The notes: generated from the sequence alone by a model not told the origin. 47,622 bases of DNA from Alphaproteobacteria bacterium (GCA_017960745.1 JAGCYN010000021.1:1-47622); one strand, 5' to 3'. Numbered from the stretch's first letter, positions 6,315 to 30,056 are shown. A program made the numbers and translations.

Positions 6315-8489
6315 CTAAGCGGCCGCCTTCAGTTCTTCCAAAACTTCTCTCTTCAACGTGACGTTATCAATCTTGCCGGTCGCCGACATCGGAATTTTAT
6401 CACGATACAGAATGATGCGCGGCAAATACAACTCCGGATAACCGTTTTGCTTAACAAAGTCACGCAACATATCCATTGTCAGGCCCTTTTCGTTGGTTAC
6501 CAGCACTATTTGCTCGCCTTTATGTTCGTGCGGAATGGCCACGACACCGCAACAAAAATCTTCTTTTCCAGCAAAAGCTTTATTAATCATATTTTCAACG
6601 GCACGCAACGACACCATCTCGCCGCCGATTTTAGCAAAGCGCTTGATACGGTCTTTAATGCTGATAAAGCCGATTTCATCAATATCAACCACATCGCCGG
6701 TATGATACCAACCGTCTTCCGGCGGTACCAAAACCCCCGGATTATCGGCCATAATATAGCCGGCCATCACATTCGGTCCTTTAACCACCAATTCGCCGCC
6801 TTCTTCAATGCCGTCGATTTTATCTAAGCGACACTGCATTCCCGGACAAAGTTTGCCGATGGTGCCAAACTTGTTAAACACCATATTATTGCCCGCAACA
6901 GCCGGTGAACATTCGGTGGTTCCGTAACATTCCATTAAACGCACGCCCAAACGCTCGTTTAAGATATTGCGCGTGTCCAACTTAACGCCCTCGGCACCGG
7001 CATAACACAAGCGCAAGCTTCCGAAATCAAGCGGGTGCGAAATTTTAGCATAGCTGCGGAAAAACGTATCGGTTCCGATCATCACAGTCGCCCCGATTTC
7101 ATACAGCAAATCGCTGATAATACGGAAATGAAGCGGCGACGGATAAAGAAAGACTCTTGCCCCCTGATACAGTGCATAAAGCGTTCCCAAAACCAGACCG
7201 AAACTGTGGAAAATCGGCATTGAATTCAGAATAACATCCGTGCGGTTTACCGTTTCAAAAGTGGCAATCTGCCAAACGTTGGAAATAACGTTACGGTTCG
7301 ATAAAACTACGGCTTTCGGTGCCCCCTCGGAGCCGGAGGTAAACAAAATAACCGCGCGGTCATCCGGTGTTGCTTTATACGGCACATACTTTACTTTATA
7401 TTGCAACAGCGCCAAAATTTTTGCCCAAATTGAAATCTTTTTCGCTTCTTCTTCCAAATAGCAAACTTCATAGCCGTTTTCTTTAATGGCATCAACGACC
7501 TCTTCCAAACCGGCTTTTTTAACAAACATCTTTGATGTAATAACTTTTTTGCAGACCGTACTTCTAAGGCCGCTCAAAATATTTTTAACGCCGGCGCTGA
7601 AATTCAGCATAACCGGCACTTGACCATAGGCATTAAGCCCGAAAAAAGTGCAAATTGCCGCCACCGAGTTCGGCAACATAATCGCAACCGATTCTTGAAG
7701 AGCGGCGCCCTTATTGAAATGACGTCCCAAAACATAGGCGGCCAACATAATATCCTTAAAGCTTTTCGGCTTGCGTGTAATATCTTCAAGCACTTTCGGA
7801 CGCTTAAAACCGAAGGCCGATTTAGCGTGAATTTTAGCCGCTTTAATTAACTGCGTGAATACCGTTAACTCCGGATTATACATCGCCTCAAAGGCCTGTT
7901 CGCGCATAATCATGTAAATTTCATTGGAAATATGATTACGCTGATGGCGCAGTTCATCTTTAAGCTTTAACGGACGCGGGGCATCAACTACAATTTTTAC
8001 TTTCGGGAAATAGCGATGCGGCAAACGACCTCTGGTGCGCGAAAAATGACAATATTGCAAACCGTTAATCCAAATCGGAATAACCGGCGAATCGGTCTTA
8101 TCGGCCAACAAACCGGCGCCCTCGTAAATTTTCATGATATTGCCGTTGGTGGTCATACGACCTTCCGGAAACATCACACACAGCCGACCGGAATTAACAA
8201 TGGAAATCAATTGCTTAAGATCGGGAACATCAATATTGCCGTATTCCATCACATCCGCCGTTTTCATCAGCAAACGAACCCAATAACTGCGGTAAAGCTG
8301 TCCTTGCAACGCAAAAACAGGATTCCCCGGCAAAAACGCAAACAGCACAATCGGATCAACATAAGAAACGTGATTGGAAATATACAAACCCTTCTTCGGC
8401 AGCTGTGATATATCAAATCGCATTTCAAAACGAACTTTAAAAAGTCTGAAAAAACAACGCAGACAAAAACGCACAAAATCCCGCATCAT
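6315..8489 (-). CDS. aas: Bifunctional 2-acylglycerophosphoethanolamine acyltransferase / acyl-ACP synthetase (Aas-like)
   Basis: 724 aa. The N-terminal PlsC-type acyltransferase has the HX4D motif (NHVSYVDP). The C-terminus is an AMP-binding adenylating domain (TSGSEGAPKAV, GWYHTGD). Architecture and length match E. coli Aas. The stop codon is TAG. Confidence 0.8.
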   Translation of the reverse strand: MMRDFVRFCLRCFFRLFKVRFEMRFDISQLPKKGLYISNHVSYVDPIVLFAFLPGNPVFALQGQLYRSYWVRLLMKTADVMEYGNIDVPDLKQLISIVNSGRLCVMFPEGRMTTNGNIMKIYEGAGLLADKTDSPVIPIWINGLQYCHFSRTRGRLPHRYFPKVKIVVDAPRPLKLKDELRHQRNHISNEIYMIMREQAFEAMYNPELTVFTQLIKAAKIHAKSAFGFKRPKVLEDITRKPKSFKDIMLAAYVLGRHFNKGAALQESVAIMLPNSVAAICTFFGLNAYGQVPVMLNFSAGVKNILSGLRSTVCKKVITSKMFVKKAGLEEVVDAIKENGYEVCYLEEEAKKISIWAKILALLQYKVKYVPYKATPDDRAVILFTSGSEGAPKAVVLSNRNVISNVWQIATFETVNRTDVILNSMPIFHSFGLVLGTLYALYQGARVFLYPSPLHFRIISDLLYEIGATVMIGTDTFFRSYAKISHPLDFGSLRLCYAGAEGVKLDTRNILNERLGVRLMECYGTTECSPAVAGNNMVFNKFGTIGKLCPGMQCRLDKIDGIEEGGELVVKGPNVMAGYIMADNPGVLVPPEDGWYHTGDVVDIDEIGFISIKDRIKRFAKIGGEMVSLRAVENMINKAFAGKEDFCCGVVAIPHEHKGEQIVLVTNEKGLTMDMLRDFVKQNGYPELYLPRIILYRDKIPMSATGKIDNVTLKREVLEELKAAA

Positions 8490-13149: not shown

Positions 13150-14748
13150 TTATTTTTTGCATTTTGCAAATAAATCAAGGTCTTGCACATATTCTGTGGT
13201 GTGAATTCCGCCGACGCTCAGAACCGAATGGAAGAAATTATCATGCGAAATCGGCTCGGATGCCGAATCCGTTAAACATTCTTTGTCTAAATTTAAAGCG
13301 GCAAAAGTTTCATCTTCCGCCCAAATGAAAAACGGAATATCCTTTTGCTCTTGCGGCGCAATAATATACGGTGCCGAATGCAAATAAATATTGTTTTCGC
13401 CCAGCGATTCGCCATGGTCGGAAACGTAAAAAAGCATGATGTTATAATCCTTTTTATACGGCGCAACCGTTGCAATGATATCGGCAATATTTTGCGACGT
13501 GTAGTCAATTGTATTGTCGTAAACATTAATCAGTTCTTCATGCGAACACTCATCCAGCTTTTCAGTATTGCAGGCCGGCAAATACGGCGCCTTTTCCGGT
13601 TTATAGCGTTTAAAATATTTCGGGCCGTGACTGCCGATTTGGTGCAAAACAATAACGGTGTTCTGCGGCTCTTTCGGCATACTTTTGCCGATTTCCGGCA
13701 GCATCACGGCATCCAAACAATCCGCTTCCTGCGGATAGGCGCGACAAGGATACAACGTTTCGATTCGAGGGCAAATATCCTTGCAATCGCTGTTATTTTC
13801 CACCCATACCACATGATAACCGCCGCGTTTCATCACATCCAACAAATTTTCGGTATAAGCCATACTGCCGCTGACAAAATCCGCGCGTTTGTTCCTAGAA
13901 AACATACATGGTAGCGACACCGCCGTTGATGTGCCGCAGGAAACGGCGTGCGGATAGTTGATAATGTTCTGTTTATAGCCGTTTAACGGTGCATTGGTGT
14001 CGCGCTCATAGCCGTTAAACGAAAAATGATCGGCACGTGCGGTTTCGCCGACAATCAGCACCAACAGGTTCTTTTTATCGTTTTGCCAATATTTTTCAAA
14101 ACGGGCATCGCGACCGATTTCCATAAATTCATGATTTTCGCGATAATATTTTTTAACCATGCTGTTGACGGCGCTGATATAATTAACCGGTATCAGCTGA
14201 TATTTCAACGGTTTATGGCTGCGCACAAACGGCGCGGTTTTTTGAAAGCTTACGGCAATCGGCGTGACGGCAATCAAAATTAACCCCAGAATCAAAAAAG
14301 TTTTAGCTTTAACCGATGTTTTAGGCGCAAACTGCAACCGCCAAATCAATAAACACGGCAAAAAACCCAACAACAAAATATATGCCGCCCATTTCCAATT
14401 CAGCAAATCTTGAGTTTCAGCCCAGTTTGTCTGCAACGTGTTGCGCAACATTTCATCATCAATGTAAACATTGTAGGTTTTCACAAAATAAAAAACACTG
14501 CCGTTAATCAGCAAAAACAGCCACGATAACGGTTTAACGGTGTGTTTATGAAACAAGATAAAACAACACAGCGAACCGAGCGCCCATAAAACCACAAAAG
14601 AACCTATCGTAAAAAGCAAGCTGCTTTCCCGATAAACCTTTTCAAAAAACACTGTATTGAAAGCCAGCAAGTTGTATAACATGAAAAGAATGTCGTAGGT
14701 TTCCAGCCGAACGAATATCTTCTTTTTGTTTACAACTTCTTCCATCAT
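13150..14748 (-). CDS. eptA: Phosphoethanolamine transferase, EptA/MCR family
   Basis: 532 aa with 5 N-terminal TM helices and a sulfatase-fold domain. Family motifs GETARADHFSFNGYERDTNAPL and SDHGESLGENNIYLHS are present. Confidence 0.85.
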   Translation of the reverse strand: MMEEVVNKKKIFVRLETYDILFMLYNLLAFNTVFFEKVYRESSLLFTIGSFVVLWALGSLCCFILFHKHTVKPLSWLFLLINGSVFYFVKTYNVYIDDEMLRNTLQTNWAETQDLLNWKWAAYILLLGFLPCLLIWRLQFAPKTSVKAKTFLILGLILIAVTPIAVSFQKTAPFVRSHKPLKYQLIPVNYISAVNSMVKKYYRENHEFMEIGRDARFEKYWQNDKKNLLVLIVGETARADHFSFNGYERDTNAPLNGYKQNIINYPHAVSCGTSTAVSLPCMFSRNKRADFVSGSMAYTENLLDVMKRGGYHVVWVENNSDCKDICPRIETLYPCRAYPQEADCLDAVMLPEIGKSMPKEPQNTVIVLHQIGSHGPKYFKRYKPEKAPYLPACNTEKLDECSHEELINVYDNTIDYTSQNIADIIATVAPYKKDYNIMLFYVSDHGESLGENNIYLHSAPYIIAPQEQKDIPFFIWAEDETFAALNLDKECLTDSASEPISHDNFFHSVLSVGGIHTTEYVQDLDLFAKCKK

Positions 14749-14760
14749 CAGTCCGCCGAA

Positions 14761-15666
14761 TTAAGCCACCAATTCTTTCACTTTGGAAATTGCTTCATTG
14801 ATTTTGCTGACATCAACACCGCCGGCCTGAGCCATATCCGGTCTGCCGCCACCGCCTTTGCCGCCTAAAACTTCGGCAGCCGCACGCACAAAATCAACCG
14901 CGTTGTATTTATCGGTTAAATCCTGACTGACGCCGACAACCACTGATGCTTTATTATCTTTATCCGAGCATAAAACCACCACACCGGAACCGATATTTTG
15001 CATAATATCGTCCACAAACGATTTTAATTCTTTCGGATGTGTATCCGGCACCGTTTTACCGACAAACTTAACACCGTTCACAATTTCCGTTTCGTTTTGT
15101 GATTTTGCCTGACCGCCGGCCAAACTCTTTTTCAAATTAAAGATTTCGGCTTCAAGTTTCTTGCGTTCTTCCAACATGCCGTTGATACGATTTTCCATAT
15201 CGTTGATATTGGTTTTCAACATGGCGGAAACCTGATGCAGTTTATCTTCAATCGAGCGAACGTAACAATCGGCGCCGTAACCGGTAACACATTCCAAACG
15301 ACGGACACCGGCCGCCACGGCAGATTCCGAAACAATGTGGAAATAACCGATATTACCGGTTGAGCAAACGTGTGTACCGCCGCAAAGTTCGCGCGAGAAC
15401 GGCGCTTTTTCATCACCCATGGTCACCACGCGGACATCATCGCCGTATTTTTCATCAAACAGCGCCATCGCGCCGAGTTTTACCGCCTCATCTTTGTTCA
15501 TAATCACGGTATTTACCTTCAAATCACGGCAAATCTGCTCGTTGACAATATCTTCAACCTGTCGCAACTGCTCTGCCGTAACCTGTTTCGGATGCGAAAT
15601 ATCAAAGCGCATTCTGCCGGCTTCCACCGCCGAACCTTTTTGTGCCACATGATCGCCCAAAACCAT
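14761..15666 (-). CDS. alaS: Alanine--tRNA ligase, C-terminal fragment (editing-domain remainder + C-Ala/DHHA1)
   Basis: VLGDHVAQKGS...RFDISH, ELCGGTH and the GGKGGGRPDMAQAGG motifs of AlaRS. It is in frame with the upstream fragment, separated from it by one TAG and 6 sense codons. Confidence 0.85.
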   Translation of the reverse strand: MVLGDHVAQKGSAVEAGRMRFDISHPKQVTAEQLRQVEDIVNEQICRDLKVNTVIMNKDEAVKLGAMALFDEKYGDDVRVVTMGDEKAPFSRELCGGTHVCSTGNIGYFHIVSESAVAAGVRRLECVTGYGADCYVRSIEDKLHQVSAMLKTNINDMENRINGMLEERKKLEAEIFNLKKSLAGGQAKSQNETEIVNGVKFVGKTVPDTHPKELKSFVDDIMQNIGSGVVVLCSDKDNKASVVVGVSQDLTDKYNAVDFVRAAAEVLGGKGGGGRPDMAQAGGVDVSKINEAISKVKELVA

Positions 15667-15684
15667 TTTCAGAGCTTTATGAGC

Positions 15685-17391
15685 CTAGTGTGTTACCGAG
15701 TGGTTGGCACAAATACGACTACGATTGGTTTCATCAACTTCAAAATTGGCAAAAGCACCGACTTTAACCGTACCGTCTTCCAATTCGCAGACATGAACGA
15801 AAACATTGTCCAGCTTGCGTTTGCAATCCACCACTTTCGCCGTAAAATCTTTTGAGGTAATCACACCGATATCGCCGACCTGACCGCCGCATTCACCGTA
15901 AAACGGCGTTTGGTTGGCCACCAACTCGAATTTACCGCTTGTAACACTCGAAACTTCCTGACCGTTCTGAACCAACGCTTTGATTTCGCCGTCAGCTTTT
16001 AATGTGTTATAGCCGAGAAATTCCGTGGCGCCGCATTTATCCTGAATGCCGTACCAAACTTTTTCAACCCCGGCATCACCCGAACCGGCCCAGTTTTTAC
16101 GGGCTTCGGCTTTTTGTCTTTCCATGCAGGCATCAAAACCCTCAACATCAACCTCGATATCCTTGCTTTTCAAGGCATCTTGCGTTAAGTCAAGCGGAAA
16201 ACCGTAGGTATCATAAAGTTTGAACGCTGTTTCGCCGCTCAATTTGGAACCTTTCGGTAAATCAGCAATTTCTTCATCCAGCAGACGCATACCTTTATCC
16301 AGCGTGCGACCGAAACGCTCTTCTTCAATGGCAATGGTTTCTTTAATTAAATTTTCGCGGGCATAAAGTTCCGGATAAGCCTCGCCCATTTCCTTTTGCA
16401 ACACCGGCAACAACTTATAAATCATCGGATCTTTAACCCCGAGCAGATAAGCATGGCGCATCGCACGACGCATAATACGGCGCAAAACATAGCCACGGCC
16501 TTCATTAGACGGCAAAACCCCGTCGGCAATCAAAAAGCAAATGGCACGCAAGTGGTCGGCAATAACGTTATGAGAGGCTTTAAGCGGACCGTTTGGATCG
16601 GTATTTGCCAAATCGGCAATTGCTTTAATAATGTGCTGAAACATATCGGTTTCAAAGTTTGAGTGAACACCTTGCAAAATTGCCGCAATACGCTCCAAAC
16701 CCATGCCGGTATCAATAGACGGACGTTTTAAATTAATGCGCGAACCGTCAGGCAAGTCTTCAAACTGGTCAAACACCAAGTTCCAAATTTCAATGTATCG
16801 GTCACCGTCTTCTTCCGGCGTTCCCGGCAGACCGCCCCACACTTCCGGACCATGGTCATAAAAAATTTCCGAACACGGACCGCACGGACCGGTATCGCCC
16901 ATCTGCCAAAAATTGTCTTTTGTTGCAATACGGATAATTCTGTCTTCCGGCAATCCGGAAACTTTTTTCCAAATATTGTGAGCCTCGTCATCGTTATGAT
17001 AAATCGTTACCGCCAATTTTTCTTTCGGCAGACAAAATTCTTTGGTTAACAGTTCCCAAGCATACGGAATGGCATAATCTTTGAAATAATCGCCGAATGA
17101 AAAATTGCCGAGCATTTCAAAAAACGTATGGTGACGAACGTCATATCCGACGCTGTCCAAGTCGTTATGTTTACCGCCGGCGCGAACACTTTTTTGGGCG
17201 GTTGTCGCTCGCGTATAATCGCGTGTTTCATTTCCGGCAAGAATATTTTTAAACTGCACCATACCGGAATTTGTGAACATCAAAGTCGGATCATTATCCG
17301 GCACCAAAGACGAAGACGGAATAACTTTATGTCCGTTCTTGGCAAAATAATCCAAAAAAGTTTTACGAATTTCATTAACGCTGACAACCAT
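15685..17391 (-). CDS. alaS: Alanine--tRNA ligase, N-terminal fragment (catalytic + tRNA-recognition domains), ending at an in-frame TAG
   Basis: [36 protein letters not shown] and other class II AlaRS motifs. It ends ...NHSVTH-TAG, inside the conserved HxxxH of the editing domain. Confidence 0.9.
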
Positions 17392-29015: not shown

Positions 29016-30056
29016 ATGAGCATAGAAGAAAAGATATTTAAACGCACGATTATAGATTTTATCCGGTTGGAAAAATTCGGTTTTACCAAATCTGACGGCA
29101 AATGGACTTATAGCGAGCTGTTTATGGCCGGCGACTTTAAGGCGGTGGTAAACATTACGCCAAAAGGCGATGTATCAGGAACAGTTTTTGAGACCGCTAC
29201 CGAAGACGAATTTTTGCCGCTGCGGGTTGAAAACATGGAGGGATTTGCCGGCGAGGTGCGCGCCGAATATCAAAAGATTTTGGATAATATCAAAGCCAAC
29301 TGTTGCCGGATTAACTACTTTGTGCACCCGCAATCTAACCGTCTGACGCAAGCGATTTTTGAAACTTATGGCGATGTGCCGGTTTTTCCGTGGGATAATG
29401 ACGATGCCGGCGTTTTCAAAAATCCGGATAACGGCAAATGGTACGCGCTGATTATGTGTATTGACCGGAGCAAGCTCAATAAAAAGCTTTCCGGCAAAAT
29501 TGAGGTGATGAATATCAAGTTAGATGAAGTGAAAATACCGGAATTGCACAAACAAAAGGGCTTTTATCCGGCGTATCATATGAATAAAAAAAACTGGATT
29601 ACAATGACGCTTGATAACACCGTGCCGGATGAGTTTTTGCTTGCGTTGATTAACGAGAGCCACGCCTTTACACTTGGAAAACACAAGCGCCATCGCGCCG
29701 GAAATAATGCGTGGTTAGTGCCGGCAAATCCGAAATTTTTTGATATTGAAGCCGCTTTTGCCAAACAAAAAGAAATTATCTGGAAGCAATCGAGCGACTT
29801 GCAGGTTGGGAATACGGCGTATATGTATGTCGGCGCGCCGATTTCGGCGGTTTTGTATAAGTGCACGGTAACGGCGGTGGATATTCCGTATGATTACGAG
29901 GATGAAAACCTCAAAATCAGCAAGGTGATGAAAATTAAACTCATCAAAAAATATGCCAAGGATTTTATGAATTTGGCCAAGCTCGGTGAATACGGCGTCC
30001 GAACCGTCCGCGGCCCGCGGATTTGCCCGCCAAATTTAGCTGATGTGTTGAAATAG
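29016..30056 (+). CDS. MmcQ/YjbR-family domain protein fused to a C-terminal PUA/EVE-like domain
   Basis: The central region (VFPWDNDDAGVFKNPDNGKWYALIM...YHMNKKNWITMTLD) matches YjbR/MmcQ. The C-terminal WLVPANPKFFDIEAAF...VGNTAYMYVGAPISAVLYKC looks PUA/EVE-like. The stop is TAG, followed by a terminator. Confidence 0.6.
   Translation: MSIEEKIFKRTIIDFIRLEKFGFTKSDGKWTYSELFMAGDFKAVVNITPKGDVSGTVFETATEDEFLPLRVENMEGFAGEVRAEYQKILDNIKANCCRINYFVHPQSNRLTQAIFETYGDVPVFPWDNDDAGVFKNPDNGKWYALIMCIDRSKLNKKLSGKIEVMNIKLDEVKIPELHKQKGFYPAYHMNKKNWITMTLDNTVPDEFLLALINESHAFTLGKHKRHRAGNNAWLVPANPKFFDIEAAFAKQKEIIWKQSSDLQVGNTAYMYVGAPISAVLYKCTVTAVDIPYDYEDENLKISKVMKIKLIKKYAKDFMNLAKLGEYGVRTVRGPRICPPNLADVLK

Follow-up and report, generated by a model that had tools for sequence, protein, structure and literature searches.

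An in-frame TAG in the alanyl-tRNA synthetase gene of an alphaproteobacterial metagenome-assembled genome is probably an assembly artefact

Introduction

The split alanyl-tRNA synthetase (AlaRS) of Nanoarchaeum equitans and the free-standing AlaX proteins are conserved arrangements in which the pieces have their own translation starts and the splits fall between domains. A superficially similar division, into a catalytic piece and a separate editing and C-terminal piece, appears in the AlaRS gene (alaS) of an alphaproteobacterial contig (GCA_017960745.1, JAGCYN010000021.1:1-47622), where an in-frame TAG interrupts the minus-strand reading frame. We refer to this whole stretch of 47,622 nt as the window. 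We put the probability at roughly 85% that the TAG is a single-base T>A artefact (TTG Leu to TAG) of the deposited assembly and not the state of alaS in the organism. The original prediction, made from the window by itself, had listed four options without ranking them; the comparisons described below support sequencing or assembly error and lend no support to amber suppression or a split enzyme.

The metagenome-assembled genome (MAG; G000) to which the window belongs, as its longest contig, comprises 1.39 Mb in 133 contigs, is 88.5% complete and 4.75% contaminated, and has a GC content of 44%. Its transfer-messenger RNA is of the two-piece form, as in Alphaproteobacteria. In a set of 5.8 billion proteins, the closest AlaRS sequences reach no more than 88% identity to the one encoded here, indicating that the species is rare in public data.

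Results

The alaS gene and its in-frame stop

As originally described, the TAG at window positions 15685-15687 (minus strand) lies between two halves that share one frame and together make up 876 codons. It is codon 569 and the sole in-frame stop within an otherwise normal alaS, and the minus strand around it reads ...GCC AAC CAC TCG GTA ACA CAC TAG GCT CAT AAA GCT CTG AAA ATG GTT..., which translates as A N H S V T H * A H K A L K M V. On either side lie two open reading frames (ORFs), 15685..17391 (568 aa) and 14761..15666, the second of which gives 301 aa when counted from its first ATG. Codons 1-568 (15688..17391, minus strand) encode the class II region for aminoacylation and tRNA recognition in full, together with the beginning of the editing domain as far as H568; codons 570-876 and the TAA terminator (14761..15684, minus strand) encode what remains of the editing domain (tRNA_SAD, including the motif CGGTH) and DHHA1 (C-Ala).

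The read-through protein matches PF01411 (tRNA-synt_2c) at residues 7-554 (E=1e-212), PF07973 (tRNA_SAD) at 653-700 and PF02272 (DHHA1) at 774-875, and the product of codons 1-568 matches the AlaRS catalytic fragments 3hxu and 1riq in the PDB (E=3e-171). The translation runs from the class II catalytic and tRNA-recognition region through the editing domain, with both of its zinc motifs, to the C-terminal DHHA1. The first of these motifs, HxxxH, is H564-S-V-T-H568, and the second, CGGTH (CxxxH), lies downstream of the stop in the translation. The stop had been placed within HxxxH; it does adjoin that motif and does lie inside the editing domain, but it takes position 569, directly after the second histidine, and is not within the four-residue spacing of the two histidines. 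The part of the gene that follows the stop is undegraded, with 83-88% identity to congeners, the same as for the N-terminal part. The first ATG after the stop is in frame, six codons downstream, at 15664-15666. No Shine-Dalgarno-like motif precedes this ATG, the sequence before it being ...aggctcataaagctctgaaa.

We compared the gene with its counterparts in congeneric genomes. In 14 of these, alaS is whole on one contig and has no internal stop. Codon 569 was read in 11 of these and encodes Leu in every one (TTG in six, with TTA, CTA, CTG and CTT in the others), in agreement with the guess that the original codon was a TTG for Leu. An uninterrupted AlaRS frame, absent from the window record, is therefore found in these 14 congeners as well as in a conspecific contig, which is described in the next section. 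A second alaS or an alaX, which had been proposed as something to look for, was not found in the 88.5%-complete genome, where the sole other match is a ThrRS editing-domain homologue.

We note that one congener (G003) carries, beside a normal alaS, an extra 437-aa ORF (contig C20:2946-4208) with 40% identity to AlaRS residues 6-427, which is the catalytic region only. It may represent a paralogue, or it may come from contamination of the bin.

Assemblies of the same strain

Two further assemblies of the strain cover the site. Contig k141_3333180 of the ENA assembly ERZ27256983 (42,873 bp) spans window positions 4750-47622 at 99.97% identity, reads CAC TTG GCT at the site and is annotated with an uninterrupted 876-aa AlaRS. 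The original prediction had held that reads supporting a sense codon here would argue against a true interruption, and at the level of independent assembly such a codon is what we find. In contrast, scaffold_19126 (11 kb) of the ENA assembly ERZ28653446 (label XIEF21-1_SAMN15830195) carries the same TAG as the window. Over 10.4 kb the Logan contigs of SRR12529099 match the window at 100% identity; they end at window position 14504, short of the TAG.

The TAG and TTG versions also differ at codon 558 (15718..15720, minus strand), 34 nt upstream of the TAG. This codon is AGT (Ser) in the window and ERZ28653446, on the same haplotype as the TAG, and CGT (Arg) in ERZ27256983, on the haplotype with TTG. 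The congeners have TCG, GCN or AAG there and do not settle the ancestral state. An exact-protein look-up of the Leu-repaired full-length AlaRS returned no record, which is explained by this second difference at codon 558. The same look-up showed that intact NusA (with Tyr) and intact GlgB (with Gly), in the exact versions of this genome, are on record in ENA, as is a truncated NusA. It returned no exact record of intact DnaK, GyrA or GlyA, or of a 1137-aa autotransporter ORF.

Pairwise comparison of the strain's assemblies over approximately 60 kb revealed 20 single-base differences and no insertions or deletions (indels). All but one are transversions (19/20), with T>A/A>T and A<->C/G<->T about equally common. 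For the first 16 differences, of which 15 were transversions, P=0.014 if two thirds are expected to be transversions and approximately 1e-5 at the more natural 40%. The single transition is at 14693, in codon 19 of an eptA-like gene (13150-14748, minus strand), where only the window has GAC (Asp) and both ENA assemblies have GGC (Gly).

The 19 differences in coding sequence comprise 3 nonsense, 13 nonsynonymous and 3 synonymous changes (approximately 16% synonymous). For random transversions in the coding sequence of this genome the expected shares are 5.7% (nonsense), 79% (nonsynonymous) and 15% (synonymous). The observed effects are close to this expectation, so the differences look completely unselected. 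Each of the three assemblies has a nonsense codon that is lacking in others: the alaS TAG in the window and ERZ28653446, a TAG at Tyr595 of aas in ERZ27256983 (window position 6705, where the window has TAT) and a TAA at K76 of tspO in ERZ28653446, near a contig end. The aas-like gene (6315-8489, minus strand) is split by its own TAG into calls of 594 aa and 125 aa in ERZ27256983.

The differences are also clustered. Groups lie at 6705/6727, 15686/15720, 21926/21956, 37495/37502 and 46940/46949/46975, and four more differences fall within 53 nt of a contig end. Of the first nine differences from ERZ27256983, seven are no more than 60 nt from another one, an arrangement reached in only 2 of 200,000 shuffles (p ~1e-5). 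The pairing of the TAG with the codon 558 change, within one read length, is typical of these clusters.

In-frame stops elsewhere in the genome

The original prediction had suggested a search for other conserved genes with an in-frame TAG, and such cases exist in dnaK, gyrA and nusA, alongside cases of TAA and TGA. They were identified by tblastn in both directions between this genome and a complete congener (G011, 1.59 Mb), which gave 212,806 aligned codons. Stops were retained if flanked on both sides by 25 or more aligned residues, with local identity of at least 50% and a single stop within 81 residues. Eight in-frame stops lie within strongly conserved alignments in G000, and the same comparison gave no frameshift-like junctions. 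The reciprocal test of G011 returned three hits, which by inspection we judged to be spurious ORFs (one of them in a stretch of many stops), leaving no credible stop.

Four of the eight stops are TAG, in alaS (for Leu, TTG), dnaK (for Lys, AAA or AAG in congeners), gyrA (for Ser, TCN in congeners) and nusA (Tyr or Phe in congeners). Three are TAA, in mutL (C113:24113, for Glu, GAA in G011), glyA (for Tyr, TAT) and a gene without a name (for Tyr, TAT), and one is TGA, in glgB (for Gly, GGA). The seven stops outside the window are at C13:11793, C25:9471, C104:10446, C113:24113, C122:1996, C79:13751 and C102:5907. Six different amino acids are replaced in all, and every change that could be worked out is a transversion. 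None of the congeners searched has an internal stop in gyrA, dnaK or nusA. Since gyrA, dnaK, nusA and alaS could not all be null in one cell, it is implausible that the consensus represents a viable genotype.

The stops in gyrA and dnaK are accompanied by amino acid replacements found in this genome only, all within approximately 150 nt of the stop. Around the gyrA TAG (C13:11745-11890), three residues that are invariant in 14 congeners are altered: at -48 nt HPHGD reads HPHVD, at +27 nt DGQGNFG reads DGLGNFG, and at +96 nt N replaces K. Around the dnaK TAG, K replaces Q at +21 nt and V replaces L at +111 nt, again at residues invariant across the genus. The HPHGD site of GyrA lies in the quinolone-resistance-determining region; the HPHVD change most likely belongs to the same error cluster as the TAG. 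In view of the spectrum, which is transversion-only, and of the remaining evidence, the TAA in mutL is better read as a further error than as a hypermutator genotype.

The frequency of these stops can be set against the differences between assemblies. Eight stops in 212,806 aligned codons correspond to approximately 2e-4 random transversions per bp, and the inter-assembly rate is approximately 3e-4 per bp; the two rates agree.

Stop codon usage and the genetic code

TAG had been regarded as rare in the window. Within the window it does terminate only 2 of 33 ORFs, at the two sites originally reported (6315-6317 and 30054-30056), but genome-wide it ends 151 of the 978 ORFs of at least 200 aa (15%). 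The genes that it terminates include eno, bamA, galE, mraY, rimM and nuoM, and it marks the gene end at many clear operon junctions. In this genome TAG acts as a normal stop codon.

ARAGORN detected 30 tRNAs in the genome, an incomplete set; the tRNA with anticodon CUA, for which a search had been suggested, is not among them. The gene for release factor 1 (RF1), prfA, was not found in this 88.5%-complete genome and scores above the curated cut-off in 16 of 16 congeners searched, so that its absence is best explained by the missing 11% of the genome. The gene for release factor 2, prfB (C76:4050-4609), runs into the contig end and retains its classical +1 programmed frameshift site, with ...LRRYL* preceding the shifted frame.

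A change of genetic code was considered and rejected after counting same-frame ORF pairs joined by a single stop, which occur at 29 of 151 TAG, 101 of 625 TAA and 22 of 202 TGA terminators, with no TAG-specific excess. A Shine-Dalgarno filter applied to these pairs gave no discrimination and was not used. TAG-specific suppression was suggested by the presence of dnaK and nusA among the 29 TAG junctions and was ruled out by the in-frame TAA and TGA codons that tblastn revealed. With three types of stop codon and six amino acids replaced, a TAG-specific mechanism is excluded.

Discussion

The differences that set these assemblies apart are substitutions only, dominated by transversions, unselected, clustered and private to individual assemblies, and this combination is not that of polymorphism filtered by selection, of gene decay, of recoding or of a designed split. 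We hypothesize that the consensus of this fragmented, low-abundance MAG carries scattered, never-selected substitutions at approximately 1-3 per 10 kb, and that these came from a few poor reads or damaged molecules incorporated at sites of low depth. Stops make up about 6% of the outcomes of random coding transversions, and a process of this kind would be predicted to leave a small number of essential genes with nonsense codons, as is seen. Two-channel Illumina instruments produce single-channel miscalls of the types A<->C, A<->T, G<->T and C<->G, all of them transversions, and such miscalls would match the observed spectrum. The clusters and the mixed spectrum are more suggestive of poor segments of reads than of damage of the classic 8-oxoguanine type. 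We infer that the cause is technical, through base-calling or damage combined with low depth, rather than rare real variants. The changes are most likely read-level errors or, less probably, unselected rare variants; either way, the TAG is not the state of alaS in the organism.

Two points weigh against an artefact. The TAG stands in two deposited assemblies, the window and ERZ28653446, so at least two assemblers chose it. Taken at face value, the sample label would make the source Xie et al. 2021 (Microbiome 9:137, PMC8199421), a study that used 150-bp NovaSeq reads from PCR-free libraries and both per-sample assembly and co-assembly, with MEGAHIT and IDBA-UD. The two TAG-bearing assemblies were very probably built from the reads of the same sample. 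MEGAHIT normally drops k-mers that are seen only once. Together with PCR-free libraries, should that study be the source, this behavior makes a random single-read error harder to explain.

The occurrence of the TAG in two assemblies and the PCR-free library of the inferred source paper (PMC8199421) would also fit a real and recent nonsense allele, non-functional or strongly deleterious, carried by part of the population of one animal or sample and drawn into a consensus from few genomes. The 307 undegraded codons downstream require any real event to be very recent, and very recent variants are expected to look unselected. We nevertheless consider such an allele unlikely. One consensus holds stops in gyrA, dnaK, nusA and several other conserved genes, which no viable cell could combine, and each site would need its own rare lethal allele to have been sampled. 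A transversion to transition ratio of 19:1 is unlike known bacterial mutation spectra, the clustering is at the scale of a read, and the indel-type lesions usual in real gene decay are absent. It is less probable again that the TAG is tolerated, with a 568-residue N-terminal product charging tRNA-Ala and editing lost, supplied by re-initiation at the ATG six codons on, or rescued by amber read-through. The N-terminal ORF does include all of PF01411, and work from the Schimmel laboratory reportedly found that N-terminal fragments of E. coli AlaRS of approximately 461 residues keep aminoacylation activity. An in-frame ATG at 15664-15666 is available to start the C-terminal piece, and the 88%-complete genome offers no second alaS or alaX in its place. 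However, the split is absent from every congener examined and from the conspecific contig, the downstream ATG has no Shine-Dalgarno-like sequence, the zinc-binding HxxxH and CxxxH would sit on separate chains, and no such rescue is plausible for the gyrA, dnaK and nusA stops of the same genome. We likewise give very little credence to the TAG haplotype being a real allele that dominates one animal's population, with cells living on a 568-residue editing-deficient or two-piece AlaRS.

Least probable of all is that TAG is read as sense in this lineage, whether by means of an amber suppressor tRNA or because RF1 was lost and the codon reassigned. The failure to find prfA, the share of TAG among the in-frame stops (4/8) and a tRNA set of 30, from which a tRNA-CUA could be missing in the absent 11%, are compatible with it. 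Against this, TAG ends 151 of 978 long ORFs, clear gene ends among them; prfA is present in 16 of 16 congeners and the genome is only 88.5% complete; none of the 30 tRNAs has a CUA anticodon; the four TAGs stand for Leu, Lys, Ser and Tyr/Phe and are joined by in-frame TAA and TGA; and the conspecific contig has TTG. We regard sense reading of TAG as largely refuted, and an error in the deposited assembly remains our preferred explanation.

These results call for caution in the use of this genome, which is apparently a species representative and whose core genes hold eight or more spurious nonsense codons. Unselected missense changes in it probably number around a hundred or more, and one of these, the HPHGD to HPHVD change in GyrA, could be mistaken for a quinolone-resistance mutation. 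The split calls of alaS, gyrA, dnaK, nusA, glyA, glgB and mutL should not be taken as pseudogenes, split genes or recoding, and each assembly of the strain carries spurious stops of its own. If the alaS TAG were real and dominant, it would constitute a natural editing-deficient or two-piece bacterial AlaRS.

Compared with canonical bacterial AlaRS (the E. coli AlaS type), the gene has the same 876-codon length, the three Pfam domains in order, HxxxH at 564-568 and CGGTH, and the conspecific copy is intact; the window differs only by the TAG at codon 569, and the assemblies by Ser or Arg at codon 558. Unlike the arrangements in N. equitans and AlaX, the break consists of one base, falls inside the editing domain, leaves the second piece without a ribosome-binding site and is not shared by any of the relatives or by the conspecific contig. 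The alaS of this organism is ordinary, and the split has no biological significance. The closest likeness is to the batches of stop-creating substitution errors in short-read metagenome and phage assemblies, for example those of G>T/C>A damage or base-calling, which are likewise private to an assembly, scattered over essential genes, free of indels, unselected and matched by intact sister versions. The present case differs from G>T/C>A batches in that its spectrum is not confined to G>T/C>A and in that its differences cluster within less than one read length.

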